NCBI GenBank assembly: GCA_044892525.1
Contig: CM097887.1
Span: 80,082,397 to 80,146,396 of the forward strand
DNA: 64,000 nucleotides
Reading direction: 5' to 3'
Source of the DNA: Schmidtea polychroa
Taxonomy: Eukaryota
This document shows positions 22,024-41,509 of this stretch, piece by piece. The notes beneath the pieces were generated by a model. That model did no database searches. It was not told the origin of the DNA and saw only the letters and a list, made by a program, of their open reading frames with translations. How positions within the stretch are numbered: the first letter of the stretch is position 1; each line of letters opens with the position of its first letter. Made by a program: the position numbers and the translations under genes.

Positions 22024-25000
22024 ATGATTCTAAATCTAAGAAGTTACGGATTACTTTTATTTCTGTTTTGTTACCATCTGGTGAATTGTCGTAAATATAT
22101 TTTGTTCCTTGTTTTTTAATGTTAAACTGTTATAGAAAATGTTAATTTGGCTTTATCGAAACCTACATACACGGTTCCATTGGACGACCCGACCATAACT
22201 CCTGTTATGATGAATGACGGCGTTGTGGACTCTAACTGTGCGTTGTTTTACGGACAGATGATGTACGTAATAATAGATTTGCAAGTTGTCACTCAAGTCA
22301 ACTCAATAAAAGTTTATAATACTTTTTACGAAGGTGACTTTGTTATTGTTTTAATATTGAAACTTTTATTATAATCACAAATTAGCATATTACTTGTCGC
22401 TGTTTGAGTTGTCCGTGACGAACAATTGGCGATCGTGCAATGCCGAAAATTTATACTCAACCCCAGCTTGTTCTGGTTCAGTGATTCCGACATCCACAAA
22501 AAATTTAATGATGTTTAACACTACTGGTTCGTGTTCTGGCAGATTTGTCATTTTCAGATTGAAAACTATTTCCAATTCGATGTGGTTTAAGATTTGTGAG
22601 TTTCAAGTTTATGGAGTTCCGACTACAAATTTGGCGCCTATAGATGAAGGAAGTACTTGCCAGCCATTTCCAGCAAGTAATATCTGATTCTTTTGTCATT
22701 TGTATATAAAAATTTTCATCAATTTTCATAACAAATTTGACTGCTATTTTAATCTACTTACTATTGATAGTAGTTAATCACGTTTTACAGCGAGTAAATC
22801 GCTTACAAATCAAGCCGTATACGAAACTTATATGTACATTCTAATAACGAAAGTGTGAAAAGATTTAAATAATTCATTTGATGTTTCTAATTCAAAACAA
22901 AAACACCTTTTTCTTTTATTATAAAGCTTTATAAAAATGAGAAATTTAATGAACTAATCGCAAATTTTATACTATAAATACTATATAATCAAACTATATA
23001 AATACTAATATAATCAAACATTAAATATTTAATAATAATAATTAAAATATAAAATTAACATAATAATATTAAAATAATAATATTAAATGTCAAGGTCACA
23101 CTTATAAATGAAAAATTATAGAAGTTAATAAGTTAATAATAAATAATTAATAATAAAAATAATAAATAATGAACTTTATTCTTAATTTTAATTTATTATA
23201 TTTTAAATTTAAATTTTTTTTTATGTTTATATTTTCATATTCAGTTGATAAATTTATAAATGTATTTTTATTTTATTAATCAAATTTTATTGAAATTTTA
23301 TCGAATTATCAGTAAAAGACTTGTATTATTTTTTATCATTGAACTTTGTTTCACTTTCTTTTTTCCTTATTTTTTTCAATATTTATGTTGAATATAATGT
23401 GAAATAGTGATATTTAGTTAGAAAAGAAATGAAGACGAAGGAAATTTCCTTAAAATATTTTTTGTTTTCCTTTAATATAATTCTTGATTCAATGACGTCT
23501 GTTGATTGTATATTAACACATTTTAATAGATGCGCTCAAACAATGTTGGAAAAACCCAAGACAAAAAAGAATTAATAAAGAAATTTAATTTAAAGAGGCT
23601 TCCTGTTATTTTTAATGTTATTAATTATATATGGAAATAAATGATTTCAAATCATCTTATTTGTATAAAAACTTTCAATATTAACTGACGTTCTGGTTTT
23701 AAAAAAAGTGTTCTAATTTGTAAATTAATAAAAAAAAGTCATATTTTGTATAATGCCCCAAATATTTATTATACAAATGCATTTTTTTCAACTCTCATCC
23801 CCCTAAAAAAATTGTCTGCTTGGTAAAAAAAATATTTTTGGCCCCCTGGAAAAATTTCTGTGGACGCGCATGCTATGATGGATTATGGTTGGATGAAAGA
23901 ATAAACGAAACATCTTATTTTTGATTTATAATTTGATGCAGGTAGCAACATACTTCTCAATAAACCAATTTACTTATCCAATGAATATTATCAAGAAAAC
24001 CTAAATGATGGAGTGTACGAAAGCTCTGACGTATGGACGTATTGCTATTACTCCTCATTCGACATGGAGCAAAGTGTATTGATAGACATGAAAGACACCT
24101 ATAAGTTAAGTCTTTTTAGAATTTGGAACAGTTTAGATATTTACCAATGTAAGAAATTCTGTTTAAACAATGAAAATTGACTTTAAATTAATTAGACGGA
24201 ACTGACTATTCGATCAATGTATCAGTCGGGACCACTTTTAAGATTGAGACTATGAATAGTGATTTACAAAACTTTACTCCGATTAAAACAAATGCCAAAA
24301 TTGTCGGTCCAACAATAGAAGCTAACCTGACGAATCAAAATGTTATTGGCCGATATATTTATATAGAAAGCCAAAATAATAACAATGATTATTTTACTCT
24401 CTGTGAAGTGGAAGCGACTGGAACTTTATATGCCGGCTCTCCAAAACCCGTCATTCTCTCCCAGCCGGTTCCAGATATAACAGCATCAAATCTGGTAAGC
24501 TTACTTTTTAAAAATTCACAAATAATTTTACTTTCTGATCTTTTCTTTCATTTTAGACGATGGCCCCAGCAATTCGGTCTGGCGTATTGAAAGTATTAAT
24601 TGACGCATACAGCAGTGGCGTTCTTTTTACCAAAAACTGTGAACCGGTTCTTTGGGATAGCGACTCATATTCTTCATTTGCTATTTCCTGCAAATATTAT
24701 TCCGGGAGAGTCATGTTATTTGGGAAATCAGACTTCTTTGGATCTCTGTTAAATAATCCTGTCAACTCTGCTTTTAAGTCCAACGTATATAAATTTCTGT
24801 CTCCATATGGATTGAAAGCCAAGGTTATAAGCCAAGTAAACATTAATTCTTCATCCATAGGGAACATTGTGTTCATGGATATATCTAAATCAATTTCATC
24901 ACAACTACAAACAATTCTTTTGTCGAAATTGAAGAATGGATATGTCTCTCTTGTTCTAGAAACGACTTATTGGGCTGAATTATTCTATACATATTACCGT

Positions 25001-26746
25001 CCAAATTATGATTTTATACTTAAAGAATTATCGGTTGATTTTAACACTAGCACCATTTCATCAGTCTCGAAATATATTGTCCTTACTAATAATGACTATA
25101 ATAGCATGTTTATTAATACAGAATGGAGTCTTCAACGAATACTAATGAATGACACTCAATTTCTTACATATGGAGAAAGGTTATTTACCATGCTTAACAA
25201 TTTTCAGAGTTACATGGTCAATTCAAGCTTGATAACCCCTTATCTCGTATCTATTTATCATAAATACTTTGCATTCATAGAATACAACTGTCCTTCTACC
25301 ATGGTACCTCTACCTTTGGGAACTATGCAGACCTATTTCTTTACATTCAACCAGTTACTTTTGAGCCCGTTACTAGTAAACAGTGGATTCAAATCTCCAT
25401 GTGTCAGTTATTATCCCGGAGATTTCTCGAATAATGCCAACATCATTAAGATAAATCCATCTTTGTCAATTACTGGAACTATTGCTGGAGAGTATCATTC
25501 AACCGGTCTATATTTAGCAGCTGGAGATACTCTTCAATACACCGTCATTAATCAAACCGGATGTTGGGATGTTTCAGTGGGTTGTCAAAAGGTTGGACTG
25601 AGTCCTGCTAGGAATGTTAGAGATATATATCGAATGCCTTACATTTCTCTCAATAAATTATGCATTGGAAGTTCAGGAAGTGTGTTTTCCCCTTTTGGGG
25701 GTTTAATATGGATTCGTAATCAACAAGCAAATTCATCCATAAATATTCAAATAACGAATGTTGTCCAAAGTCCATTTTTTAATTTATTAGACCCTAATGG
25801 TAGATCTATTTGGGAAAGTACTAGAACTACTAGTCAAGGACTATACGCTGAACTTCAGGGGAATCATATATCTATTTGCGTTCCAAGTGAGGTGGTGCGA
25901 AATTACAGTTTTGATTACTTGGTTAACCTTTTCAATACTTACTGGGATAGAATATTCCACATAAACAGTCAAATGATAGTCAAGGATTCTCTTCAAATTA
26001 AGAAAAACAGAATTGTTTTTGACATACAAACACCATATTATGCAGTGTTAAGTGGATATCCCATAATATTGACCTCTAACTTTTATAATGACACCTTCAA
26101 TATCAATTATATTTCTACCGTAGGATCCTGGGGCGTTCTCCATGAAATTGGACATACATTCCAGGAAAGTATTATGTTTTTCACAGGTGCTAAAGAGGTA
26201 ACAGTAAACATTTTTGTTCTTTTCAATTATGACACTATATGGAGCTGGAATGTAACAAATCCAAACTCAAGGTTACTTAGTTCAACAAGCATTGAAACTG
26301 CCGGAAATATTCTATCTCAAACGGTTGACTATAGCCTGTGGCAATCCGATAATTTCTTTGCTCTTGAAATCTTTGGAGAGTTTGCCTATCAGTTTGGTTG
26401 GGGCTTTTACCAACAATTTTTCAATATAATGCGAAATCAAGCTGCTTTGCCAACCGCCAATCAAGACATAATTGACTTTTATGCTCTCAAATTTTCATCT
26501 TTATTAAATTTAAATGTGAAGCCCGTCTTTGATTTCTGGGGTCTCCCAGTCAGTACCAATGCATCGAATTCTTTATCAAATCTAGTTTGCTTCTTTCCGG
26601 CTGATAAATTTGTTAATATCAGTCCTGTGAGGGTCGCACTGATTCTAGCAACATACAATAATGCATGTGTCAAAACTTCGCAATCATTCTGGAGTTTTCC
26701 ATTCCAACCACCAGTTGCAAGGCCTAATGATATCGTGACATTTTAA
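22024..26746 (+). CDS. Signal peptide + two F-type-lectin/discoidin-like domains + TCAF-like/M60 zinc metallopeptidase, 1083 aa, 6 exons
   Basis: join(22024..22090,22136..22333,22386..22676,23942..24148,24196..24494,24557..26746), GT-AG and frame-consistent (3252 nt). Hydrophobic N-terminus GLLLFLFCYHLVNC; NLALSKP..MNDG..C..IDL..KICEFQVYG and NILLNKP..NDG..C..IDM..GRYIYI..TLCEVEATG; M60 motifs HSTGLYLAAG, SPFGGLI, WGVLHEIGH, KEVTVNI. Confidence 0.85.
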
Positions 26747-27215
26747 TTTGAATTTTGAATAAATATTTCTGTTGCTATTTTCTAGATTTTATTTATATTT
26801 ATGTTAACCTAAATTTATAAAGTTTCATTACTTCAATACAAAAGGTAATACCGACATATTTTCTAATTTATTCTTAAACCCTTGATCAGTCATTTCGAGA
26901 TTTCAGTGTACAATAAATCATAAAATAGCGACTTAAAATATGACCATAAAATTAGAAAAGCGAACAATGATAAAAGACATTATCAAAAAGCAAACCGAAA
27001 TGTTTATTTGGCGAGCAATAATGGAAAGCGGTTGTGGGGCAGCAACCAATCAAATGAAAGAAATATCAAGAAACAACCAATCGAATCAAATCAAATGTTG
27101 AAGAATATGGGAATCGTCCAGTTATACAGTATCTGAAAAGAATTGCGCATAATATCAACCTTTATTATGGATTGGCAACAATTTGAAAAGTTATAATTTT
27201 TTTGATCGCATTGTT

Positions 27216-27458
27216 AGTAGTGGGGATATATCCCTCACGACCACAGGCCTCCCACTGTTTTCATGTTTTATGGCTATTTTACCCCAAAAAACGTACAAAA
27301 AAACACTAAAAACCCTTAAAAACGCACATTTTTTATTTTGCTCTATTTCGCAAAATTTAAAAAATATGGATTTAAGTCTACAAAACGGAGAAAAATGCCG
27401 ATAAAGCTATGAAAAGCGTATATCGGCCTGCGGTCGTGAGGGATATATCCCCACTACT
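27216..27458 (+). repeat. Left terminal inverted repeat, itself bounded by an internal inverted copy of its first 34 nt
   Basis: 27216-27249 is the reverse complement of 27425-27458 with one mismatch; contains the palindrome GGGATATATCCC. Confidence 0.92.
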
Positions 27459-27471
27459 CGGAGGAACTATA

Positions 27472-27587
27472 GGTCTTGGTGAATACAATACTGGTGAATC
27501 CTATCTTGCGAATGCGGTCTTGGTGAATACAGGTCTTGGTGCTACGGTCTTGGTGATTGCTGGTCTTGGTGATTGCTGGTCTTGGTG
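27472..27587 (+). repeat. Array of six exact GGTCTTGGTG 10-mers
   Basis: Copies start at 27472, 27516, 27532, 27546, 27562, 27578. Confidence 0.9.
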
Positions 27588-27705
27588 ATAAATAAAATAA
27601 AAAAATAAAAAAATAAAAAATAAAAATATAAAAAAATAAAAAATTAAAAAAATAAAAATAGAAAAATAGAAAACATAGGATCCAGTAAAAAAATTTATTC
27701 TAAAA

Positions 27706-30700
27706 ATGAACTGTAATATTTGCAATAAAGTTTTTAAAAATAAAACAGGATTAATTTCCCACTGTAAGTCGAAGGCTCACTTACTAAAAGAAAATAATCT
27801 TAATGACACAAATTCAAAACTCTGTCCTAAATGTAAAGGAAGATATCTACATTCAGGATATAATAAACATTTTGAAAATTGTATCGGGAGACTTAGAGAA
27901 GTATTTACATGCCCTCATTGCAACTTTTCAACAAAAATAAATTTCTACTATTTAAAACATTTAAAAGAACATATAAAAGAAAATCCCGAGGATGAGGAAT
28001 GTTATTCAGAAGGAGAACCTGATCATGTTGAAAGAGAAAAATACAACTGGGATAATTTTAATCATATAGATGAATTTAAATTAAAAATTAATGGACCTGC
28101 AACCCCTGGAGAATATATAAAGAGAAATAAAAAAAATATAAAAGATTCTTTCTGTGAGGCTTTAAAAAATTATAAACCGACAAGGTATAATGTTATAAAA
28201 TATAAAATCACAATAAAAGCAAAATACTGGAGAGCCCAAGGAGCCCAAGAAGACACAATTCCTTTAGATGTTGAAATCCCAATGCCTTTTAAATATTTAT
28301 TTTCAACTAGAGGATTTAATAAAAGCATCAAAGAAATAATTCAAGCAGTCGAAGCAAAACAAGAAGAGATTGAAAATGAATTAGGAGATTCAAACTTAGT
28401 ATTTCAATCCTTCCAATCTTTAGTGATTGATTATTGGAGGGGATTACCACCTAATCCTAAATTCTATATTCCTACACCCTTTAAATCTAAAAATGTTATA
28501 AATGTGCAGAATAAGGATAACAAATGTTTCATGTGGTCAATACTTGCACATTTACATCCTCAAACCGAAAACCCCCAAAGAGTTTCAAAATACAAAGAAT
28601 ATGAAAATGAATTAATATTCCCAGGAGGACCGGAAGGCCAAGGAGGATTCATGCATCCAATGAAACTAGAAGATATTCCAGAATTTGAAAAACTAAATAA
28701 TCTTAAACTTAATATTTATGAACATGTTAAAGGATGGGGACGTGGATGCAGAGATATTATTCCAATTTATATTTCTGATTATGAAATACAAGGCTATGAA
28801 GTACAAGAAGGCGATAGCACGAGGGAGATATATCTTTTAATCTTGGAACATGAAAATAATCAACATTATATTTTAATAAAAAACTTTCAAGCTTTTACAT
28901 CTCCAGAGAATCCAACTAGTGGAGGAGGAACATGTAAAAGATGTCTTCATTATTCAACAACTGAAAACTCCATGATTAAGCATGCAAGATTTTGTGAAAA
29001 GGATTCACCAGCTTTAATTAGAATGCCTACAGATCCCAGGATGTATTTTAAAAACTTTTCAAATTTATTACAAACATTAGGAGTAATTTACGGAGACTTT
29101 GAATCTATAAATCATAAACAAGATCTAGTCAAGCAATATTTAAAAATAATAGAAAAATATAAACTCATGGATGAATGGAAAGCCTCTAAACAGAAGAAGA
29201 AACCAACAAGGTTGAAGGCCTTTCTAAGAAAAAATAATAAACCCAATAGTGTTAAAAAAACTAAACAATTACCATCTGCTTATAAATTATTATTTAAAAG
29301 TAATTATCCCGAAGTCATAGAATCTAGAGAATATGCATTTCAAGGAACTTCAGAAGATGTCTTGGATCATTTTACTACAAGTATAAATGATCTAGAACAT
29401 GAAATATTTGAAGCATTAAAAACAAAGTATCCTCAAAATATTTCAGATCAACAATTAGAAGAATATAAAAATACTTTCAACTGTTGGATGTGCAAACAAG
29501 AGATCAATACAGGGAATCCAACTAATGATAAGGTTATAGATCACGATCATTTAAAAAGTGAAAATAATTATCGAGGAGCAGCCCATAGAGATTGCAATCT
29601 TAATTGTCATACCCCCAAATTTGTACCAGTTATATTTCATAATCTTTTTGGTTATGACGTACATCTATTTATAAAGCATCTAGCAGCAAATGCCAAAAAC
29701 TCTTTCAAGGTTATTGGCTTAACAAAGGAAAAATATAAATCACTTGAATATGGGAAATTAAAATTTATAGATTCCTTAAACTTTCTCCAAATGTCTTTAG
29801 ATGGCATAGCAAAAACATTAAAGCTAGAAGATTTTAAAATCACTCGGGAGTTCTTGGAAAAAAATAATATACCAGCAGAAGAATTTCCTACATGCTTGGC
29901 GAAAGGAATATATCCCTATGACTACGTTGACTCCTTTGAAAAATATAAGGAAACAAAATTACCAGAGAAAGAACACTTTTATTCACTACTTTCAAAATCT
30001 GGGATTACAGATAGTGAATATTCCCGAGCTCAGAAAATGTTTCACCTGTTTGACTGTAAAACTTTAGGAGATTATACAAGTATGTACTTGTCCCTAGATG
30101 TTTACATTCTAGCAGATTGCTTTGAGGAATTTACAAAGTCTTTTGTTCTTAAACCTTATAATTATATAACTGCACCCTCTTTAGCTTGGGATACTATGTT
30201 ATATACCATTTGGACTTCAGATCTTCCAGAATCTGATAAAATTATAGATCTTTTAACCGAGCAAGACATGTTTAATTTAATTAAAACAAACATTAGAGGA
30301 GGAGTATCCTCAGTAATGGGGAATAGAGAAATAAAAGCTAGAAATGCAATAACTACTAGCCGAATGCTCTCTGATGATCCATATATAAAACTTAACGATG
30401 AGGAACTAAAAGAAGTATTAGAAGGAATGAAAAATCCTCTATTTATACTTTATATAGATGCAACAGCTTTATATTCAGGAATTATGACTCAATATTTACC
30501 AATGAGTGACTTTCATGAAATATATCCTCCAGAATGCCCCTCAGAAGAAGAATGCCCCTTAAAAGACCTTATGAAAGAAATACGTTCAACTCCTAAAGAT
30601 TCTCCAATAGGATACTTTGTAGAATGTGACCTCGACTACCCAGATGATATAAAATCAGGAACAAGACATTTCCCTTTAGCTCCTATAAGAAGAAAGATTG

Positions 30701-32067
30701 ATATCAACGAACTTTCTGAATGGCAAATCTCACAAGATAAACCTCCAATAATGAAACTTCTTTGTGATCAAACAGATCGAACTTATTATCTTTGTCACTA
30801 TAGACTCCTCCAGTTTTATCTTTCACAAGGAATGATATTAAAAAAAGTTCATAGTGTCATAAGATTTAAACAAGCAGCATTCATGAAGACTTTCATCGAG
30901 GAGAACATTCGTTGTCGAAACATTGCAAAAAGAGGTAACCTTTTAAAAGACAATAATTATAAACTTTTAAACAATTCAGTCTTTGGGAAGACAATGGAGA
31001 ATGTTGATAAATATACTAATATAGAACTCTTGACAAATAGTGAAAAAGATATAGCCCGTTATAATCGTATGCTAGGAAAGCCTACATTTAAAAACGCACA
31101 AGTATTTTCTGAAAATCTTACTGCAGTAGAACTAAAGAATTATGAGAAAACATATAATAAACCAATATTTATTGGCTTTGCAATTTTAGAACTTTCAAAA
31201 TTACAAATGTATGAAACATATTATAACATCTTACAACCTATATATGGATCGAATATAGCAATGCATGCAATGGATACAGATTCAATGTTTTTAACAATAA
31301 GAACTCACGATTTACAAAGTGATATCTCTGAAAATCCTATACTTTCAAATTTAATAAATTCATCTGGAGAATTATTTTCGTTTAAAGATGAAAAACCTTT
31401 TACTCCTATAGAAAATGGAATATTTATTCGTGCTAAACAATATTCATATGAAACATTTACAAACCCTGAATTTGAAGAACATACATTTATATTTAAAACC
31501 CCAGAAACAGAAGAAAGCATTACACATAGATATCCTATATTCCCTAGAGCTGAAGAACCCGTAAAGGATAACAGATGTAAAGGAATTCAGAGATGTGTAG
31601 CAAAGAAACTTTCTCATCAAGATTATATAGATACATTGAATCCAAATCATAAAGATAAAATTGATGAAATACATCAACTTAAAAGTGAAAAGCATGATAT
31701 TTACTTGATAGAATCCCAAAAAGTATCATTATCAAATTATGATGACAAAAGATTCATACTAAGTGATTTAAAGACAACTCTTCCTATAGGAAATAATTTA
31801 ATACCTATAATAAAAAATCTTGATAGATTGAATCAGTTATATGGTACAAAGATTACTGATCTTGATATTTATAATGTTGAAATCATTTATCCTGAGAGAA
31901 TTGAGAAACCTTTATATTCTCAAGTTTTTAATCCTATATGTTTAGAACTTAAATATTTTAATACTGATCCTGAATATATAAAAGGTCTAAGTGATAAAGA
32001 ATTTAAAGATCATAAAGAGGTTCTAAAAACTAATTTCGAAAAGTTAACATCAGATTCTATCAAATGA
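27706..32067 (+). CDS. polB: Protein-primed family B DNA polymerase with N-terminal zinc fingers and an inserted endonuclease VII-like zinc module, 1453 aa
   Basis: Exo I IYGDFES, Exo II FHNLFGYD, FIDSLNF, KGIYPYDY, Exo III YLSLDV; Pol A YIDATALYS, Pol B KLLNNSVFGK, Pol C MDTDS, KGI, NYDDKR; CWMC..DHDH..YRGAAHRDCN. Confidence 0.96.
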   Translation: MNCNICNKVFKNKTGLISHCKSKAHLLKENNLNDTNSKLCPKCKGRYLHSGYNKHFENCIGRLREVFTCPHCNFSTKINFYYLKHLKEHIKENPEDEECYSEGEPDHVEREKYNWDNFNHIDEFKLKINGPATPGEYIKRNKKNIKDSFCEALKNYKPTRYNVIKYKITIKAKYWRAQGAQEDTIPLDVEIPMPFKYLFSTRGFNKSIKEIIQAVEAKQEEIENELGDSNLVFQSFQSLVIDYWRGLPPNPKFYIPTPFKSKNVINVQNKDNKCFMWSILAHLHPQTENPQRVSKYKEYENELIFPGGPEGQGGFMHPMKLEDIPEFEKLNNLKLNIYEHVKGWGRGCRDIIPIYISDYEIQGYEVQEGDSTREIYLLILEHENNQHYILIKNFQAFTSPENPTSGGGTCKRCLHYSTTENSMIKHARFCEKDSPALIRMPTDPRMYFKNFSNLLQTLGVIYGDFESINHKQDLVKQYLKIIEKYKLMDEWKASKQKKKPTRLKAFLRKNNKPNSVKKTKQLPSAYKLLFKSNYPEVIESREYAFQGTSEDVLDHFTTSINDLEHEIFEALKTKYPQNISDQQLEEYKNTFNCWMCKQEINTGNPTNDKVIDHDHLKSENNYRGAAHRDCNLNCHTPKFVPVIFHNLFGYDVHLFIKHLAANAKNSFKVIGLTKEKYKSLEYGKLKFIDSLNFLQMSLDGIAKTLKLEDFKITREFLEKNNIPAEEFPTCLAKGIYPYDYVDSFEKYKETKLPEKEHFYSLLSKSGITDSEYSRAQKMFHLFDCKTLGDYTSMYLSLDVYILADCFEEFTKSFVLKPYNYITAPSLAWDTMLYTIWTSDLPESDKIIDLLTEQDMFNLIKTNIRGGVSSVMGNREIKARNAITTSRMLSDDPYIKLNDEELKEVLEGMKNPLFILYIDATALYSGIMTQYLPMSDFHEIYPPECPSEEECPLKDLMKEIRSTPKDSPIGYFVECDLDYPDDIKSGTRHFPLAPIRRKIDINELSEWQISQDKPPIMKLLCDQTDRTYYLCHYRLLQFYLSQGMILKKVHSVIRFKQAAFMKTFIEENIRCRNIAKRGNLLKDNNYKLLNNSVFGKTMENVDKYTNIELLTNSEKDIARYNRMLGKPTFKNAQVFSENLTAVELKNYEKTYNKPIFIGFAILELSKLQMYETYYNILQPIYGSNIAMHAMDTDSMFLTIRTHDLQSDISENPILSNLINSSGELFSFKDEKPFTPIENGIFIRAKQYSYETFTNPEFEEHTFIFKTPETEESITHRYPIFPRAEEPVKDNRCKGIQRCVAKKLSHQDYIDTLNPNHKDKIDEIHQLKSEKHDIYLIESQKVSLSNYDDKRFILSDLKTTLPIGNNLIPIIKNLDRLNQLYGTKITDLDIYNVEIIYPERIEKPLYSQVFNPICLELKYFNTDPEYIKGLSDKEFKDHKEVLKTNFEKLTSDSIK

Positions 32068-32141
32068 TTTTTTTCTTTTAAAAATGTCAACAATTAATTT
32101 AAGAGTGACAACATCAACCTTTTGAAGGGCAATAAATTTTT

Positions 32142-32777
32142 TTATGTATGATTCTTTAGCCACTTCTCTCGTTTAATTTTTTTAGAATATTCATTAGTTA
32201 TAACATTAGCACTTTTTAATCTATTAATATTATTTTTAATATCTTGTATTATTTGATTTGATTTCATTATTTCATCATCAGTTAAGATTCCATCTTCCAA
32301 AGCTTTTAATTGAAATAAAAATAATTTAGAGATTCCTAATTCTATTGATAAACAAACTTCACGATATAAACTTTTCTTTTTAGAAGTATAAGATAATGAA
32401 ACTATTTCAGTCAAGAAACCATCAGCTACAGAAATACTTCCAAGTATTACAGGTGCTATTGTTAAAACTGGTAAAGTTATGGGTAAAATAACTGTTAATA
32501 TTGCAGATGCAAATCCTTAAGAATAACCTATAATTTTTAAAACTGTATTCCCTTTATTCCATCTATTTTTAACCTTTTTATAATGCTTTAATAAATCTTG
32601 TAAATGTAAGGTTTCTGATTTAAATTCTTTTACTCTCATAATTTCAAGTTCTGTGGGAGCCGAGGCCTTGGAACCTTTGTGACCTTCGGAATAATATCCT
32701 GATGATCTCAATTCTGGAGGGACCTCTGGGTAAATTTTTTCTTCTCTTACTTCTTCCATCTTTTGGACTTTGTCCAT
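32142..32777 (-). pseudogene. Polinton membrane protein (possible GasderminX-type) split by one in-frame TAA at 32517-32519
   Basis: ORFs 32517-32777 and 32142-32414 are in the same frame; the interval reads GFASAILTVILPITLPVLTIAPVILGSISVADGFL (hydrophobic hairpin), followed by KALEDGILTDDE, a motif typical of this Polinton protein class. Confidence 0.7.
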
Positions 32778-32785
32778 TTTAATAA

Positions 32786-33796
32786 TTAAAAAAATAAGAC
32801 TTTATTCTTCTGAGCACCATCTGGCACCAATACTCGGATATCAAAAGAAACTCTTGTTGAGAGAATATCTTTATACAATTCCATCAATGCTTTACGAACT
32901 TCATCAACATCAACCTTTTTTTCATAAAATATTAAATCTATATATTGTACAAGTGTGCTTTTAAAAATAATATTCTTACTTTTAACTTTATGTAGTCCAT
33001 GTGAATGAGTATTAACATACCAATCTCCGTGTGGTAAATCATAACTAGTCATTATAACATCACCCTTTTCAAGCTTACTATTATAATCACATTTCACAAA
33101 CCATTTCATTCTTTCATTATCATCATCAAACAAAAAGAAATAAGGATCAATAATCTTTACAACCATAAAAACACTCCATTCTTTACTGTTTGTTGTTATT
33201 AAACTTGGTTCTATAAAATGTTTATATGTATGGGGTAATAATGTTTTATTCTGTTCTAATTCAGCAGCTCTTTTTCTAATACTATGTGTGGTGTTAATGT
33301 GTGTTCCATGAGACTCTAAATTTGAAATTCTTTTATTAAATGATGTAATCATCTTATTTATTATATTATATATTGTATTAAATTTAGTATTCATAATTTG
33401 TTTATCTTTAGAGTTTAATATACTAGTATTTAACTTTACAACTTGTTCAGTTAACAGACTTTGTAACTTGTCAAATTTATCATTAAATCGTTGTTCGATA
33501 TTATTAAGCTTTGATTCCATTGAATCAATTTTTGTTGTTAATGAACTTTCAATTCTTGTTGTTGTTAAATCAGTATATTTTTTAACACCATCTACATATT
33601 TCTTATTAACTGCATCAGCTTCATCAGTTGGAAAAGATAATTCTTTTATCTTGTGTCCATTTAAAATTAAATCACCCTTCATTGAATCACCTCTTTCATT
33701 AATATATTTATTTTCTGTTAAAGTTAATATTTCTTCTGTATTAAACCCTGTTTTTATTGTTCCACCACCTCTATTACATGGAATATAAGAACTCAT
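32786..33796 (-). CDS. Fibre/spike-like protein, 336 aa
   Basis: GDSMKGDLILNGHKIKELSFPTDEADAVNKKYVD fibre-neck-like motif, heptad-rich segment, distinct C-terminal domain; adjacent to penton. Confidence 0.55.
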   Translation of the reverse strand: MSSYIPCNRGGGTIKTGFNTEEILTLTENKYINERGDSMKGDLILNGHKIKELSFPTDEADAVNKKYVDGVKKYTDLTTTRIESSLTTKIDSMESKLNNIEQRFNDKFDKLQSLLTEQVVKLNTSILNSKDKQIMNTKFNTIYNIINKMITSFNKRISNLESHGTHINTTHSIRKRAAELEQNKTLLPHTYKHFIEPSLITTNSKEWSVFMVVKIIDPYFFLFDDDNERMKWFVKCDYNSKLEKGDVIMTSYDLPHGDWYVNTHSHGLHKVKSKNIIFKSTLVQYIDLIFYEKKVDVDEVRKALMELYKDILSTRVSFDIRVLVPDGAQKNKVLFF

Positions 33797-33833
33797 TTAT
33801 TAATAATTTAAAATGACATGTGGAACTTCGTAT

Positions 33834-34604
33834 TCAAACCTGTTTCAAATGTAAATACATTGAAATCTCTTCTCCATTAAAATCAATCAATTCTCCTTCT
33901 TGATTAAGAATTTTAAAATTAATATCCATTATATATTTTCTACATAAAGGTAAATAATTTGGAGGATTCATTCTTTCAACTATTTTATATCCCATAGGAA
34001 CTGTGTTTGAGGGAAAGGAATATAAAACATTTGTTTGTTTACCATTATTATAAGAACCTGTTATACAATCGCAATGAATATTTATTGTGTTTGTATTTAT
34101 TATTTTTATAATATTTTCTGATGTTATATTCTCAACTACAGGTGTGATATAATGGTTTCGTGTAAATCCTAAAATTGTTCTAAAGAAACTATTATTTTGA
34201 AAATGAATTCCTATATTCTCTAAAGTCATTATACATTTTGAAGTTGGTAAATCCATTTTAATTTTAATGACTCCATTTGTTTTTTTAGAAAGTATATTAT
34301 TTAAATCTTTTATCTCATAAGCTCCGGGTTCGATTGTTATTATAATCTTATCTGTAGATTTTGGGCTTATATAATAAAATATGTTATTATCTTTAGTTAT
34401 ATTAAAAATAGTATTATAAGCACAAAACCATAATAGTCCTAATTCATAATTTAAATTTTGATCTGATTTAATTGAATCTTGAAAGTTTATAGTAAAGTCT
34501 GATTCTTTTGAATTTATAGATAAAGTTCTTGAATATTTATCTGACATTATGTTTACCATTTTTTTTAAATTATCTTCCGGAAGGTTGCGAAGCTCCATTT
34601 TCAT
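33834..34604 (-). CDS. Minor capsid protein (penton), 256 aa
   Basis: IEPGAYEI, TILGF, NTINIHCDCITGSY, VLYSFP, YLPL, INFKILNQEGELIDFNGE motifs of Polinton pentons. Confidence 0.85.
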   Translation of the reverse strand: MKMELRNLPEDNLKKMVNIMSDKYSRTLSINSKESDFTINFQDSIKSDQNLNYELGLLWFCAYNTIFNITKDNNIFYYISPKSTDKIIITIEPGAYEIKDLNNILSKKTNGVIKIKMDLPTSKCIMTLENIGIHFQNNSFFRTILGFTRNHYITPVVENITSENIIKIINTNTINIHCDCITGSYNNGKQTNVLYSFPSNTVPMGYKIVERMNPPNYLPLCRKYIMDINFKILNQEGELIDFNGEEISMYLHLKQV

Positions 34605-35032
34605 AGTATAGATTTTAAATCATTATAAATTTCTTGGATTAAGGAAGTGAAACCTTCTCCTTTGGATTTATTCAATCTATACAAAACATATAAGCTTAAA
34701 ATACCACATATTTTAGTATTATTAGGTTGAACTTGTAAAGAATTAAAAGTGTAGTCCGAGAGATAGTCTTCAACTTCTTTAGTGGGTTTAATCCCAAAAG
34801 AATCAAAGTATATAGATTTTTTATATATACAAACCCAATGAGATCCTTTTTCATTTGAATTTTGATAATTTATAATGATATTCTTTGGAGTGTCTTCTTT
34901 CAGACTCGACAATTCATCATTCATTAATATTTTTATTTTTAAATTTAAATAATCTGCATAATCTTTTAAATCAAAATTTGTTTTTGTATTTATTCCAAAT
35001 GTTTTTAAAAAATCTAACATTGAAGGAGTCAT
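34601..35032 (-). CDS. Adenain-like cysteine protease, 143 aa
   Basis: IIN..GSHWV (His), YFDSFG (Asp), QVQ..ICG (Gln, Cys); stop overlaps penton start (ATGA). Confidence 0.9.
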   Translation of the reverse strand: MTPSMLDFLKTFGINTKTNFDLKDYADYLNLKIKILMNDELSSLKEDTPKNIIINYQNSNEKGSHWVCIYKKSIYFDSFGIKPTKEVEDYLSDYTFNSLQVQPNNTKICGILSLYVLYRLNKSKGEGFTSLIQEIYNDLKSIL

Positions 35033-35054
35033 TTTATATTTTATAACTTCGTAT

Positions 35055-35843
35055 TTATAACTTCGTATACTTATTAAATTTATCTTTTGAAATTATTCCT
35101 TGTTTTAATAATTCTTTAGAAATCTTTAAAATATCAGAATCTAAATTATTATGTCCTGCTTTTTTAGCTGCTAATAGTTTTCTTAATTCAATAAAAAGAT
35201 TGATTGGGTTTATCTCCTTACCCTTTCCCTGGCCCTGACCCTGGCCCTCTCCTTCTGTGACAATATCATTTTTATTTAAATATTTCTTTAAATCTTGAAT
35301 ATGTTTTGCTTTAGCACTACCATGTACTAATTCTATTAAATTTAAATATTTTTTAATTTCTAGAAGATCAACATTCTCTGAGGGATATCCACAAACTAAT
35401 CCATAAAAATCATCTGTAAATTCAAAATCTAGGTGTTTAGTATTATAAACATTTTGTGAATGAATACGTGATTTATTTTCTGAATTTAAATATAACAGAA
35501 AGTCATGTTTATTAATTGTTATTATTTGATATCCTTCAACATTAATATTAAATGTAGGTTTAATTGTTTTACTTAAACTCACATTAATTTTAGGATCAAG
35601 TATAAGAGGTTTTATATTTAAATCTTCCAACCATGGTAATTCTTTTAAATCTTGTTTATCTTCCAACTCTTTAAATTTTAAAACTTCTAACTCTTTTATG
35701 GCTTTAATTGTTGGTCCTTGTTGTTGTTGGATTACCTCATTTAATATTATAGATTCAGCGTGTTGAGTTGTATCTTTTTTATTATATTTATCTTGTTCTG
35801 ATTGTAATTTTTTTAAAAGTGCTAATCTTTCTTCATATACCAT
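35055..35843 (-). CDS. Conserved-type Polinton hypothetical protein, 262 aa
   Basis: C-terminal LRKLLAAKKAGHNN..ELLKQGII motif preceded by a GEGQGQGQGKG linker. Confidence 0.7.
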   Translation of the reverse strand: MVYEERLALLKKLQSEQDKYNKKDTTQHAESIILNEVIQQQQGPTIKAIKELEVLKFKELEDKQDLKELPWLEDLNIKPLILDPKINVSLSKTIKPTFNINVEGYQIITINKHDFLLYLNSENKSRIHSQNVYNTKHLDFEFTDDFYGLVCGYPSENVDLLEIKKYLNLIELVHGSAKAKHIQDLKKYLNKNDIVTEGEGQGQGQGKGKEINPINLFIELRKLLAAKKAGHNNLDSDILKISKELLKQGIISKDKFNKYTKL

Positions 35844-35865
35844 TTTAATGGTATTAAAAATGGTA

Positions 35866-36474
35866 TCATTTTGGTAAAGGATCCGTTGGAAAGGGCTTCA
35901 AGTATAAACCTTTACCATTTTTAATTTTACAAAGACATCCATTCTTTAAAGATTTACATATTTTTTTAAAATCATCTTTATCTTTTGAAGATAAAGATTC
36001 AGATGATGAAATTTGATTTTTTAAAAAATCATTTAAACCACGGCCTTTATAAGGATCAAGATAGAGACCTTTGCCCTGAGACTTTTGCCGACTCCCCTCA
36101 TATGGATTAAGATAGAGACCCTTTCCAACGGACACTCCCCCTTTAGCTTGCCCTACCTTCTTCATTGAATCGATTTCAGTTTGTAGTTTTTCTTTTTCTA
36201 GGTCTGTCTTTTGAGATTCTTTAGCTTTTTGAACTGTAGTTGCAATTCCTCCAGCTATTCCAGCAGCACCTGATAGTCCGGCAATGATTGCAGGTATTAA
36301 AGCAGCTAAAGGAAGAATACCTCCGGATTTGGAGGAACTCCCTATATGTTCTTTAACTTGTTCTTTTACATGTTTTCCAATAAAATATTTCTTACCATCA
36401 ATTACAACTGATTTATTTTTATTTGAATTTATTAATTCTTGCAAAGATTCCTCTGTAGGGTTTTGTGTTGTCAT
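35866..36474 (-). CDS. Gly-rich core/cement-like virion precursor protein, 202 aa
   Basis: SGGILPLAALIPAIIAGLSGAAGIAGG hydrophobic segment and three GKGLYL(N/D/K)P(Y/F) repeats. Confidence 0.7.
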   Translation of the reverse strand: MTTQNPTEESLQELINSNKNKSVVIDGKKYFIGKHVKEQVKEHIGSSSKSGGILPLAALIPAIIAGLSGAAGIAGGIATTVQKAKESQKTDLEKEKLQTEIDSMKKVGQAKGGVSVGKGLYLNPYEGSRQKSQGKGLYLDPYKGRGLNDFLKNQISSSESLSSKDKDDFKKICKSLKNGCLCKIKNGKGLYLKPFPTDPLPK

Positions 36475-36490
36475 TTTATAATAAATAAAA

Positions 36491-37270
36491 ATGGATACTT
36501 GGAAACCAATTTTAAATAGACATAAATCTAAATTTAATAATAAAGTATTTCCTGATAATTTTAGATGCTTAATTATTGGATCTTCTGGATGTGGAAAGAA
36601 TGTTCTTCTTATGAGAATGTTATTAGAAGATGGTTTTTTGGATTATAATAATTTAATCTTTTATTCTACAACCATTAACCAACCATTATTACAACTTTTG
36701 AAATGTGGATTTGAAAATAAATTAACTAAAAAAGCTATAATTGATATTTTTAAAAATCAACTTACATATCCCGAAGAGGTTTTTCATCCTTGTGATATGG
36801 TTGATTGGTACAAGGAAAAGATTTTAGAATCAGATATTAGTAATAAAAATGATTATATAGGGGATGGAATCCAGATCTTATTCTCTAATAAACCTGAAGA
36901 TGTTTTACATTGTGATTTACTTCCTAAAGATAAAAAGAATCTAGTTATATTTGATGATGTTGTTAACATGAAAAATCAAGAGATTCAAAAGAGTTACTTT
37001 ACACGAGGTAGACATAATAATTTTAATGTTATTTATATATCTCAAACATATTATGCTTTAGATAAAAACTCTATAAGAAATAATTCTAATTGTTTTATAT
37101 TTTTTAAATTAGACAAGCGTGATAAGAATATGATTTATAATGATTTATTTTCAAATGTTGAACCTGATAAGAATATGTTTGATATGTTTGTTGATAATCA
37201 TTGGAAAGAAAAATATAATTATATTTATTTGGATAGAGAAGAAGCTGAAATATGGAAAAGTTTGTTTTAG
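36491..37270 (+). CDS. A32/FtsK-like genome packaging ATPase, 259 aa
   Basis: Walker A IIGSSGCGKN (atypical N), Walker B LVIFDD, FTRGRHNN..IYISQ motif. Confidence 0.9.
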   Translation: MDTWKPILNRHKSKFNNKVFPDNFRCLIIGSSGCGKNVLLMRMLLEDGFLDYNNLIFYSTTINQPLLQLLKCGFENKLTKKAIIDIFKNQLTYPEEVFHPCDMVDWYKEKILESDISNKNDYIGDGIQILFSNKPEDVLHCDLLPKDKKNLVIFDDVVNMKNQEIQKSYFTRGRHNNFNVIYISQTYYALDKNSIRNNSNCFIFFKLDKRDKNMIYNDLFSNVEPDKNMFDMFVDNHWKEKYNYIYLDREEAEIWKSLF

Positions 37271-37281
37271 GGCTTGTCGAC

Positions 37282-38671
37282 TTAAAAATCTGTTTTCTGT
37301 AGTTCATTATTATAAAATCTACCTAATATTTTTTCATTATTTAAATCGATGATACCATATGTTATTGGAGTTGTATGATGTATTTTATTTATAATAAAAA
37401 TTTCATTTGTCCATTTTGCTGTGAATCCTTTTTCAAATTTATTTTTATATTTAAATATTCTTACGCGGTCACCAATTTTAAATTTTGGTTTTATAGGGGT
37501 TGTATCAACAATAACATCATTTTCAATATTTACCACTTTAACTGTTTCAGGATTCAAGGAAGCATTTAAAGGTGTTGATTTTATAGAACTATGTACATCA
37601 TTATTATATTCATTTACAATCTTTTGTAACAATTCATTGTTCCATTTTTGTTTTCCAATAGCAGTAAAATATTTCCACATTTTATTTTTTAATGTTCTAT
37701 TTAATCTTTCAACTACGACTGCTTTTCCTTCGTTTTCTGTTGAATATAATTTAATATCATTTTCATTTAAAAACTTTGTAAAAACTTTGTTATAAAATTC
37801 TGTTCCTTTATCACACCATAAATATTTTGGAATTCTTTGATATTCTTCAAATATATTTTCAAATGCTTCTGTAATAGAATATCCTGTTTTATTTTCTAAA
37901 CACCTTGCAAAAGCAAATCTTGTATATAAATCTATTACTGTTAAAATTATTTTATATTTTTCAGGGTCTGATGATTTGGGCATAAAGACTAAATCAGCAG
38001 ACCATGTTTGATCTTTTTCATGTACTTGAACTTTTAAATATTTTTTATTTTTTCTAAATTCATGGTGTAATTCGTTGGCATATTTTATTTGTGATTCTGT
38101 TGGGGTTTGTAAACTAGTCTTGGCTGTACTCTCGAGGGATCTTTCAATCTCTGCTTGTTCGATAATCTTTTTATTAGCAACATCTTTTGCTTTCCTAGGA
38201 AGTCCTGCTCCTATGAAAATCTTACCTTTCATTACTAATTTAACTAGAGCTCTTTGAATCTTTTCTTGGGTTGATGGATTTTGTATATTATTTAAATCAT
38301 GTATTAAATTCACATCTGCAACATGTCTATCTCTAAGATTTGTTGAATTGTAAGCAATATCATGTTTTAAAGCTGCTTGGTCGATTCTATTTATTGGTTC
38401 TTCTCCTTGTTTAGGATTATTATTTTCATCTAATCTAATATCTAATCTTGTTCCTGGCCCAGTATAATTGTGTTTAAATAAATGTCTTTCACCTGGATAT
38501 TTTTCTGTAGTAAAAGGTTTTAATATTGAAGATGTTGTTTTTGAAGATTGTAGATCACCTCCTGTTCGTGTAATATCGCCCCCTATATGTTTTTTTAGAT
38601 TTTAGATGACTTGCTTTATGGTGTTTTCTAACCCGACAATTACAAGTTTCACATTTCCAATATTTACTCAT
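37282..38671 (-). CDS. Zinc finger - parvovirus-type PLA2 - retroviral-type (rve) integrase fusion, about 462 aa; one extra base in a T7 run at 38590-38596
   Basis: Frame open from 38601 to 37282: HNYTGPGT..PINRIDQAALKHDIAY..RHVAD (PLA2), then WSADL, VIDLYTRF, WCDKGTEF, VERLNRTLK (DDE). ATG 38671 gives MSKYWKCETC..HLKSKK, which joins H-I-G-G if one A is removed (1390 nt = 463 codons + 1). Confidence 0.88.
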
Positions 38672-38700
38672 TTTAAAAGTTTTTTTATGGGGGAATCTAC

Positions 38701-39996
38701 TTATGAAGAATCTCCCCTAACATTTTCAATAATTGAAATCTTTCCACCATATAATTTCATTTCTATTTTCTTTTTTTCTAATATTAATGTATATACTTTA
38801 GCTTTAAAATTAGAATCCTTTGTTACATGAAGCGTAACATCAACATTATTTATGGCTAGGCGATCATCTTGGTCTGATACATTTATACAAAATATAGAAT
38901 ATAAATTTTTGAAATCTTCTAAACTTAATTGCGGTTCAACTTTGAAATCATAACATGTTTCAATATAATTTAGATATGGGAATATGTTTTCATTATTTTC
39001 AATATTAAATTCCATTCTATTTATTGGATAATAAGAACTATTTAATTGAATTTGGATTGTTTTTAAATTATCATCTCCAATCTTTTGAATAAATAGATTG
39101 TTATTTTTTTGGAAAGATGAATCTGTTTCTTTGAATCCAATCAAGATATATCTTGGTCGGTATGCTAAATTTGCTACCTTTATAGAATAAGTTGAGCCTT
39201 CTGTCATACTGAATTCACTACAGATTCTATTTAAATAATTTACATTTATAGATTTGTTGGAATTTAATCTTTCAAGGAGTTTGATTTCAGAATGTGGATT
39301 TAATGTCCATTCAGGTATATGCAATTCAAGTGTTGATAATTTTAATTTAGCTTTTGTATCTGCAGCTCCATAGAACAATCTTTTATCACCTTCTAGTCTA
39401 TTACAGATGAGTTCTATAAAAACATTATGGAGCACCCGGTTATAGTTTTGAAGGAATCCGAACAAGTGTTTTAATTCAAAATAACCTTCAAATTTTTTCA
39501 ACTTATAAAGTTCAACTCTTTTATAGTAAGCATAATTTATATCTAAACCATCTTTATCTAAATCCCCTTTATTAACATCAGGAATCCAACCTGTTAATTC
39601 ACCATATTCGTTTTTATAATCACAACCAGTCAAAATAAAATTTAACATTGTAGAATATACTCCTGGATGTAAAACAGTTTCAATTTCTGATGATCCTAGT
39701 TTTAATCTCATGTTGGAGAATAAATTTGGAAAGAAATTGTTTTCTAGGGTTATATCTTTGTTTGCTTCAATTTCTAATTCAATTTTATAATATAATTTGG
39801 CATTACAAATATCTATTGGGTTTGATGTTTGAAGAGATTGAAAAACTATATCACCCCTACGATTTAAGTTTGCAATAGATCCTGAAGTTGGCGAGATTTT
39901 TAAAATATCATTTTTCTTGATTTCATGAGTAAATTCTTTATTATAATCAAGATTTAATTTATTTTTTTCTTGAATTTTGAGATTTATATTATTCAT
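38701..39996 (-). CDS. Major capsid protein (double jelly-roll hexon-like), 431 aa
   Basis: NNFFPNLFSNMRLKLGSSEIE, ELKHLFGF, LELHIP, PRYILIGF, IQLNSSYYP, SIFCINVS motifs and size typical of Polinton MCPs. Confidence 0.88.
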   Translation of the reverse strand: MNNINLKIQEKNKLNLDYNKEFTHEIKKNDILKISPTSGSIANLNRRGDIVFQSLQTSNPIDICNAKLYYKIELEIEANKDITLENNFFPNLFSNMRLKLGSSEIETVLHPGVYSTMLNFILTGCDYKNEYGELTGWIPDVNKGDLDKDGLDINYAYYKRVELYKLKKFEGYFELKHLFGFLQNYNRVLHNVFIELICNRLEGDKRLFYGAADTKAKLKLSTLELHIPEWTLNPHSEIKLLERLNSNKSINVNYLNRICSEFSMTEGSTYSIKVANLAYRPRYILIGFKETDSSFQKNNNLFIQKIGDDNLKTIQIQLNSSYYPINRMEFNIENNENIFPYLNYIETCYDFKVEPQLSLEDFKNLYSIFCINVSDQDDRLAINNVDVTLHVTKDSNFKAKVYTLILEKKKIEMKLYGGKISIIENVRGDSS

Positions 39997-40043
39997 TTTT
40001 ATATATTAAAATTAATATATCCAATAAAAAAAATATTTATAAA

Positions 40044-40313
40044 ATGACTGACTTAATTGAAAGAATGAGAAATGAATTGAATGAAGTTAAACATAAGAGA
40101 ATGAAAAGAAGAGAAAAAGAACCATTAGAATATATCAAAGAGTTGATGGTAGAGAATGAAAACTATCGACATTTTTACATGAAAGCTGTAGAAGTTGCTG
40201 AGATAAGGTTAAAGAAAATGAAACAATTACGGGAAAGAGTTAAAGAACTTGAATCGATTATTTATAGTTGTAAAAATGACAAAATTTTGAAACCTGATAG
40301 CGCAGTGGGCTAG
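40044..40313 (+). CDS. Small basic coiled-coil hypothetical protein, 89 aa
   Basis: Divergent from MCP, TATAAAATG start context, helical charged sequence. Confidence 0.55.
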   Translation: MTDLIERMRNELNEVKHKRMKRREKEPLEYIKELMVENENYRHFYMKAVEVAEIRLKKMKQLRERVKELESIIYSCKNDKILKPDSAVG

Positions 40314-40372
40314 GCTGGCACAGTGGTTCAAATGGATAGTGGTTCAAATCACATCTGAGGTTAGTTTTTTTT
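40291..40372 (+). ncRNA. Candidate Pol III small RNA, copy 1 (tRNA/VA-RNA-like promoter)
   Basis: A box TAGCGCAGTGG 40298-40308, B box GGTTCAAATC 40341-40350, T8 terminator 40365-40372; AACCT/AGGTT terminal pairing. Confidence 0.5.
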
Positions 40373-40522
40373 CAACATAAAATAATATTAAAAATTTGAA
40401 AATAATATTGAAAATAGTGTGGGTATCTTATATTTATAAAGTACTTGTATATTTTATTTTATTTATTTTATTTTATTTTATTTTTTTATTAATTAAAAAT
40501 TTAAAAAATGACAAAAATCCAA

Positions 40523-40604
40523 AGTCTAATAGCGCAGTGGGCTAGACTGACATAGTGGCTCAAATGCTAGTGGTTCAAATCATATCTGAGGTTAGTTTTT
40601 TTTT
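40523..40604 (+). ncRNA. Candidate Pol III small RNA, copy 2
   Basis: A box 40530-40540, B box 40572-40581, T9 terminator 40596-40604; part of a ~232-bp tandem duplication. Confidence 0.5.
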
Positions 40605-41223
40605 CAACATAAAATAATATTAAAAATTTGAAAATAATATTGAAAATGGTATGGGTATCTTAGATTTATATTTTATTTTATTTATTTTTATTTTATTTTA
40701 TATATTTTATTAATTAATTAATTTTTTAAACATAAATATGAAAAAAAAAATATTGAAACGGGTGATGGTGGCGAACCGGCAATTATCGCCACCAGTCTTT
40801 CGAACACCCCCGGATCGATTCTATAATGTGCACATTTATTTCTTGGTTGTTTTCGGACCTCTTTCGGATTCGCTTTCGAATTCATTTGTACTTTCGAGCA
40901 GCACACTTAAAACGCCGATGAAATCGACTTCGTGAGCGAGAAGCGAATAATAAGGTGTGCTGCTATTATCGAATTGATTCTGATATATAAGTCTGGCCAG
41001 CTTGTATATTGGAAGAGATTTGATAAACGAAAGAGGTTGAAATAAAAAAAAAAAAAATGATCCGGATCAAAAAAAACTGTTGAGAGGACAGTGAAAAAAA
41101 AAAAAAAATACCACTGTCCTCTCAGAGCAGTTTTACTATTTTCATAAAATTTTTTATTCTTCAAGATTAAGATTTATAAAATTATAAATTAGTCAAATAG
41201 CAACTTGCTAGTTGACATCCTCA

Positions 41224-41509
41224 AGTAGTGTGTTTATATCCCTAACGACCGCAAGCCGACAAACGTTTTTCATAGTTTTATCAGTATTTTTTTCCCCGTT
41301 TTATTAATATTTTTGTTGTTTTTTTAATATTTTTGTTGTTTTTTTTAAGTCTTTATTTTGAAACCAAAATGTCTTCAGAATAAAGAAATTAAAAGATATA
41401 GGTTTTTAGGGGTTTTAAGTGTTTTTTTTTACGTTTATGGGGGAAAAATAGGTATAAAACATGAAAACAGTGGGAGGCTTGTGGTCGTTAGGGATATATC
41501 CCCACTACT
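41224..41509 (-). repeat. Right terminal inverted repeat with internal inverted copy of the terminus
   Basis: 41224-41257 AGTAGTGTGTTTATATCCCTAACGACCGCAAGCC pairs with the element end; about 10 mismatches to the left TIR over the outer ~108 nt (hand count). Confidence 0.9.

Follow-up and report, generated by a model that had tools for sequence, protein, structure and literature searches.

Pol III-type promoter units near the ends of an abundant Polinton family of Schmidtea polychroa

The Polinton and its genes

The window, i.e., the whole 64,000-nt stretch of Schmidtea polychroa DNA analyzed here, contains a Polinton/Maverick element of 14.3 kb (Table 1). The element has AGTAGT terminal inverted repeats, a 6-bp target duplication and genes in which Pfam recognizes an rve integrase, an A32 ATPase and a double jelly-roll capsid. 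The 1453-aa ORF starting at 27706 has no polymerase match in Pfam or PDB; from its motifs, we take it to be the protein-primed polymerase B. The protease and minor capsid genes are presumably also present, being assigned from motifs and gene order. A phospholipase A2 (PLA2)-like domain lies in frame directly 5' of the integrase ORF, with its own start codon missing in this copy, and a PLA2 frame adjoining the integrase is the arrangement described for adintovirus PLA2X genes. A TBP gene was sought in the integrase-capsid gap of the Polinton and not found, the gap being taken up by the PLA2-like frame.

Both ends of the element fold back on themselves over ~240-290 bp and have two AGTAGT motifs, one inner and one outer, a design that is constant across subfamilies while the terminal sequences differ (seen also in L148, L150, L171, and L229). 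A CCAAT-like motif followed by an A-run is common to 27682-27705 and 40015-40043, 20-30 nt 5' of the polymerase and small-ORF starts, and some of the elements that lack units have it 5' of their capsid start as well.

Table 1. Features of the window, with positions counted from its first letter.
Feature	Position	Strand	Remarks
Long inverted arms around an ORF	11603..15007		542-aa ORF at 12475-14103 (minus; no Pfam match); probably a DNA transposon
M60/enhancin-like peptidase gene	24560..26746	+	728 aa, intron-less; Pfam E=9e-38; directly left of the Polinton
Polinton/Maverick	27216..41509		AGTAGT ends; target duplication ATTGTT at 27210-27215 and 41510-41515
Fold-back left terminus	27216..27459		inner and outer AGTAGT motif
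Short tandem repeat	27474..27589		GGTCTTGGTG core; in the unit-less left arm
PLA2-like domain	38233..38601	-	PF08398, E=2.4e-10
Major capsid protein gene	38701..39996	-	PF21738, E=3e-27; head-to-head with the units, transcribed away from them
89-aa ORF, optional	40044..40313	+	no assigned family; final codons run into the 5' portion of unit 1 here
Tandem duplication	40272..40717	+	period 232 bp; 40272-40496 vs 40504-40717; holds both units
Unit 1 (type A)	40291..40372	+	7-nt leader, A box 40298-40308, B box 40341-40350, T8 40365-40372
B-like motif of unit 1	40325..40334	+	
Unit 2 (type A)	40523..40604	+	A box 40530-40540, B box 40572-40581, T9 40596-40604
B-like motif of unit 2	40557..40566	+	one private change
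S region	40757..40985	+	GC-richer, conserved, folding; usually accompanies type-A units
Further hairpin	about 41078..41126		A-run loop
Fold-back right terminus	41224..41509		inverted repeat; inner and outer AGTAGT motif

Two Pol III-type units beside the capsid gene

The right arm of the Polinton carries two small units, and the left end has none. As the sequence-only reading had described, they lie in a duplication of ~232 bp, the copies of which are 85% identical over 228 columns. Each copy has an A box, a B box (GGTTCAAATC) and a T8 or T9 run, as had been claimed. The distance from the start of the A box to the B box, given earlier as 42-43 nt, is 43 nt in unit 1 and 42 nt in unit 2, which is the spacing of a type-2 (tRNA-type) Pol III gene, and the T-run stands 14 nt behind the B box on the sense strand, where a type-2 terminator is expected. 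The predicted RNA would be ~78 nt long, within the 75-80 nt first suggested. The second B-like motif that had been noticed was also found in both copies; alone, this first of the two motifs would be only ~27 nt from the A box. A second A box within type A (TGGCACAGTGG) was rejected as a working box, its consensus A being altered in 12 of 84 units.

The strict pattern of A box, B box and T-run occurs twice in the 14.3-kb element and in none of 1000 shuffles of dinucleotide type. The view that the units are not tRNAs holds, with no tRNA called by ARAGORN in the window and no Rfam match over the units (E<=10). Their description as Pol III-type by sequence and carried by a Polinton also stands, and they are inside an element with AGTAGT ends and a target duplication.

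Distribution of the units

The genome searched is AT-rich and comprises 781 Mb in 1012 contigs. The A-box-to-B-box pattern has 2,997 exact matches in it and the reversed control has none. The first 30 of the 2,997 matches by position (28 separate places) were inspected and all are in this Polinton family: 15 are beside the polymerase start, 14 beside the capsid gene or small ORF, and one is in an internally deleted Polinton copy. The best 20 DNA matches of the genome search are copies of the element too. In the three two-ended elements examined, the units are inside the terminal inverted repeats and face outwards, with repeats of 1178 bp (99.4% identity), 977 bp (99.2%) and 697 bp (89%).

Among 42 loci picked by the capsid protein alone (the window itself included and one place counted twice), a strict unit lies no more than 1.5 kb from the capsid gene in 38, and the four misses comprise two loci with point-mutated units, one truncated locus and one true unit-less end. 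The 89-aa ORF was found in 14 of these 42 loci. A query with an outgroup capsid gave 52 loci, which are 52 of 101 listed places taken in listing order, minus places already sampled and near-duplicates. These include 46 with a strict unit, three with box-damaged units, one truncated and two unit-less; five of the 52 were read by eye, the capsid start having been missed by the script. Box conservation in sister elements, which the sequence-only reading had named as a test, was observed. Every unit detected is directed away from the capsid gene, and none lies on the other strand. In the sisters, the first unit is mostly 45-64 nt upstream of the capsid start, and at the other end of the element it is ~100 nt from the polymerase gene. 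The capsid end can have one to four units, the tandem pair of the window being one of several arrangements.

Capsid relatives at 73-75% identity exist. Beside 34 distant capsid relatives from metagenome loci, most of which are short contigs without element ends, no accepted unit was found; the single loose match to the A-B-T pattern is located inside a capsid gene. A low-threshold tRNA-Gln call in one metagenome locus (L115) was judged spurious on reading the sequence, and a search of IMG/VR gave no relative.

Unit types and their probable tRNA origin

The window units belong to type A, and in sister elements types B and C also occur, in the interval that separates the capsid gene from the small ORF. 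A fourth, type D, was found in a subfamily with 85% capsid identity (L081). In the four types, A and B boxes are spaced 39-44 nt apart, and in most cases a T-run follows the B box at a distance of 12-15 nt; the spacing in the host tRNA-Cys is 44 nt. The middles of types A to D do not align with each other (six pairwise tests, p 0.05-0.53).

With 32.4 bits, type C passes the Rfam tRNA cut-off of 29; its anticodon stem is broken, and its middle gives a match to the host tRNA-Cys(GCA) (p 0.002). Judged by these matches, type C comes from a host tRNA-Cys that has decayed. Outside the boxes, no link to tRNA-Cys could be traced for types A, B and D (p 0.13-0.84), so that a tRNA origin is shown for type C and inferred for the other three. 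In type A, the two B motifs are likely the result of a 16-nt duplication that would keep the A-B distance at the tRNA value of 42-44 nt. The Rfam tRNA search of the genome gave only Lys and Arg arrays among two loci typed, and no source for types A, B and D. Host tRNA-Cys genes are in large tandem arrays, with 995 motif matches. Long single-type tandem arrays are how host tRNA genes were found in this genome (Cys every 281 bp, Lys every 424 bp and Arg every 278 bp), located at L088 (G000:C1:269249138 on), L231, and L254.

Conservation and predicted RNA structure

For the analysis of conservation, 84 type-A units were gathered by flank anchors and not by their boxes. A common second allele is present in 0 of 31 box columns against 19 of 44 other columns; for the 67 units of the capsid-selected loci, the values are 2/31 and 16/43. 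Within the same 35 loci, a common variant was found in 1/31 box columns, 13/43 columns of the rest of the unit and 20/121 fourfold sites of the capsid gene. The boxes are below the fourfold baseline (p about 0.03) and the rest of the unit is above it (p about 0.02), both values being guides only because the copies are related and the columns linked. Variation at the first 7 and last 14 nt exceeds that at fourfold capsid sites, and the segment from the A box to the first B motif is also fairly conserved.

The compensatory change in a 5' stem that had been read from the two window copies did not hold up in the larger sample. The G of TAGGCT occurs in one of 84 units, which is the window copy itself, and 17 of the 19 units with an AACCTGA leader carry TAGACT, which does not pair with that leader. 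Across the 84 units, at least 10 leader forms stand against a near-invariant TAGACT. An acceptor-like stem between leader and trailer was also rejected, with 4.95 of 7 pairs compared with 4.92 for shuffled partners and no covariation.

Both window RNAs fold no better than their shuffles (z +0.44 and +0.55), and among 56 distinct type-A sequences none reaches z < -2 (mean z +0.14). The controls gave z -1.99 for host tRNA-Cys and z -2.65 for type C; since even the host tRNA-Cys reaches only -1.99, the test is blunt at such a length and the pair counts weigh more. The canonical T-stem has two of five pairs in 80 of the 84 units, which is not the cloverleaf of a functional tRNA. As antisense guides directed at genes of the element itself, types A, B and D gave longest matches of 9-11 nt and type C none of at least 9 nt, and this candidate was dropped. 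A TMER-like structure is missing as well: the terminator follows the B box after 14 nt, and no pre-miRNA hairpin precedes it. Nor do the predicted RNAs have the structure of VA RNA (~78 nt, z about +0.5, and no VA match in Rfam at E<=10). Conserved boxes, stems that vary without covariation and the lack of a fold argue against a VA-like double-stranded decoy.

Downstream of the units, the S region folds on the plus strand with z -2.9 (none of 200 shuffles as good), compared with -0.75 on the minus strand. A common variant is present at 15 of its 229 positions. In an alignment of 24 sequences, i.e., the window copy and 23 of 66 distinct copies, picked from the most divergent, a two-sided change is present in only one of 60 predicted pairs; several one-sided changes preserve G-U pairs on the plus strand. 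The S region has no Rfam match.

Elements without units

The unit-less end at locus L139 led to a second polymerase lineage, with an N-terminus 46-58% identical to that of the window. In this lineage, none of 24 polymerase ends bears a unit. At the far ends of 20 second-lineage elements, 12 stretches have a capsid start, of which six are unit-less, five have units and one is interrupted; the unit-less count excludes the eight stretches without a capsid start and the interrupted one. The far-end stretches of L140-L142 have no element genes. Seven complete elements, including L139, have no unit at either end in a scan that covered the ends. Their terminal repeats are paired at 86-99.7% identity, their 6-bp target duplications match, and their capsids are 86-98% identical to that of the window. 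The units are thus dispensable.

The family is also mosaic, the second polymerase N-terminal lineage being joined to a capsid module that is 95-98% alike (L145-L170 with L171-L190). These mosaic elements have short ends, mostly without units.

Proposed role of the units

The conserved part of the units is a complete promoter and terminator, not an RNA shape, located beside the outermost gene starts, which is the signature expected if a DNA-bound complex matters. Here it is tentatively proposed, at a probability a little short of even and by analogy with tRNA genes, that the units are tRNA-gene-like Pol III sites which act in cis next to the outermost genes, as a barrier in chromatin or a roadblock to Pol II. 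A captured tRNA gene likely gave rise to A-box/B-box/T-run cassettes that became fixed in the arms of this high-copy family. TFIIIC, TFIIIB and Pol III would bind at the units, and the 75-80-nt transcript would end in the T-run, its sequence being of little importance. The Pol III complex could shield the capsid and polymerase promoters from silencing that spreads in from host DNA, and could keep Pol II from reading through the fold-back ends in either direction.

tRNA genes have been described as Pol III-dependent heterochromatin barriers (available text of PMC2040200) and as blocks to intergenic Pol II (available text of PMC4228148). Layout and conservation of the units would fit a tDNA-type barrier, for which an intact promoter at the edge of a domain and an RNA of unimportant identity are expected, but unit-less ends also occur. 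The four types retain boxes, spacing and T-run although their middles cannot be aligned, and unit-bearing capsid ends dominate (46/52 strict), a dominance that may be a founder effect. Units at both ends can result from the copying of terminal repeats and are not in themselves proof of a role in cis. Against this reading are the seven unit-less elements, the 0/24 second-lineage ends and the unit-less left end of the window element. Any gain from the units would be modest, since unit-less elements integrate too. A pure cis model predicts neither RNA ends more variable than fourfold sites (13/43 for the rest of the unit vs 20/121) nor the fairly conserved segment behind the A box. In fission yeast, boundary inverted repeats contain B boxes and silencing of the enclosed DNA is favored, as far as the available text of PMC7474672 goes, so that any effect in cis could have either sign.

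Rather unlikely, and next to be weighed, is the formation of abundant 75-80-nt Pol III RNAs acting in trans, like VA, EBER or TMER RNAs. Such RNAs could act as decoys that occupy La, tRNA-processing proteins or small-RNA proteins, or could give rise to small RNAs resembling tRNA fragments, and unit-less elements would rely on RNA from other copies. The retention of the A box, the start spacing and the T8-T9 run, all beyond the needs of TFIIIC binding alone, agrees with a product, as does the stacking of several different units in one arm, but the absence of a stable fold and the poorly paired T-stem described above speak against one. The variation of the first 7 and last 14 nt above fourfold sites could be caused by an arms race; however, leader and trailer have no covariation, no hairpin lies between the tRNA-like part and the terminator, and the longest complement of the middles in the window's element is 11 nt. 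Dispensability in cis is compatible with a shared product, and a use of Pol III RNAs by DNA viruses has been described (available text of PMC4378190).

The sequence-only reading had suggested a VA-RNA analogue. What remains of this is the presence of Pol III-type units in a Polinton; the analogy is weak, as the RNA would be 78 nt and unfolded, the tandem is not fixed and the units are dispensable. A VA-like function, which the predicted structure does not support, is rather unlikely. A broader version, which is unlikely, is that animal Polintons repeatedly made captured tRNA genes into Pol III small-RNA modules, i.e., a VA- or TMER-like counter-defence cassette of units and S region, too decayed for tRNA finders, that would have helped one family to reach thousands of copies.

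It is also unlikely, and slightly more so, that the units are neutral passengers, derived from a tRNA gene that one successful lineage captured and copied between ends and in tandem while it decayed. Type C is a half-decayed form of the tRNA-Cys that the host has in large tandem arrays, unit number and type are plastic, seven complete elements have no units, and one box-damaged variant is common to two loci (L137 and L198). In addition, no unit lies beside the 34 distant capsid relatives, which are mostly short contigs without ends. What such decay has left untouched, however, is precisely the two boxes, their spacing and the T-run, and this in four types with middles that cannot be aligned; units are also present in the subfamily with 85% capsid identity (L081).

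An improbable alternative makes the unit a promoter module for the S region, whose RNA would be the functional one, produced by read-through or from an external B box; in yeast U6, the B box acts from outside the gene. The fold of the S region, its box-like conservation (15/229) and its absence from unit-less ends are in line with this, but the T8-T9 and further T-runs stand between the unit and the S region, the predicted pairs have a two-sided change in only 1/60, and some ends have a unit without an S region (L186, L195, and L213). Finally, a tRNA-derived host SINE inserted into the Polinton, the high-copy repeat against which the sequence-only reading asked for a check, could account for tRNA-derived A and B boxes and ~3,000 matches, but is very improbable and largely refuted by the Polinton-only location of the inspected matches (0/30 outside Polinton sequence), the unit also ending in a sense-strand T-run with no A-rich tail and no LINE-like 3' part.

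Comparison with known Pol III modules

The units are real and element-specific, a variation on Pol III modules already known from mobile elements. Adenovirus VA genes have intragenic A and B boxes; like VA RNA I/II, the Polinton units are small genes of Pol III type, carried by a linear, virus-like DNA element that has a protein-primed polymerase. At a length of about 160 nt, VA RNAs are highly structured decoys for PKR and Dicer (available text of PMC4378190), whereas the unit RNAs are predicted to be ~78 nt, unstructured, variable in number and dispensable. The same text describes Pol III units of MHV68 and BLV that give hairpin microRNAs. With the TMERs and BLV pre-miRNAs, the Polinton units share clustered tRNA-promoter units, those being in an animal virus; unlike TMERs, type A lacks an intact tRNA top half as a substrate for RNase Z, and its terminator follows without an intervening pre-miRNA hairpin.

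Among mobile elements, the non-autonomous LTR retrotransposons Helenus and TRIMp3 have a non-functional tRNA-like sequence in their terminal repeats, with conservation centered on boxes A and B and with inferred transcription (available text of PMC10886601). The Polinton units are similarly tRNA-derived (probably so for types A, B and D), located in the terminal repeats of a mobile element and conserved in the boxes. The Helenus promoter is thought, in that text, to transcribe the whole retroelement, unlike the Polinton unit, which belongs to a DNA element and has an early T-run; this T-run, which comes 14 nt after the B box, and the outward direction mean that the unit cannot copy the element.

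In the available texts on yeast tDNA barriers and B-box boundary repeats (PMC2040200; PMC4228148; PMC7474672), Pol III promoter elements act in cis at the edges of a domain (14-20 kb), as is proposed for the units, and the fission yeast boundaries similarly have B boxes within flanking inverted repeats (PMC7474672). The yeast host elements were tested genetically, unlike the Polinton unit, whose role is suggested by layout and conservation. Relatives of Polintons also have tRNA-type sequences: the available texts report 558 detectable tRNA genes in a survey of Polinton-like viruses, discussed as codon compensation (PMC12220804), and tRNA genes in Polinton-like viruses and virophages (PMC8502044). 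Unlike those detectable tRNAs, the Polinton units escape ARAGORN, and types A, B and D also Rfam, only promoter and terminator being kept. Promoter-only tRNA-derived units in Polinton arms were not found described in the open literature searched.

Significance

Polinton arms are usually regarded as carrying replication and integration signals. Promoter-only tRNA stubs in these arms, which standard tRNA scans overlook, would let an integrated virus-like element shape its own chromatin or make small RNAs. With ~3,000 intact A/B-box sites, the family could in addition be a competitor of host tRNA genes for TFIIIC. The genome contains near-identical elements that differ in whether both ends, one end or neither end bears units; this natural experiment, together with existing types of chromatin and small-RNA data, could separate a role in cis, a role in trans and no role.
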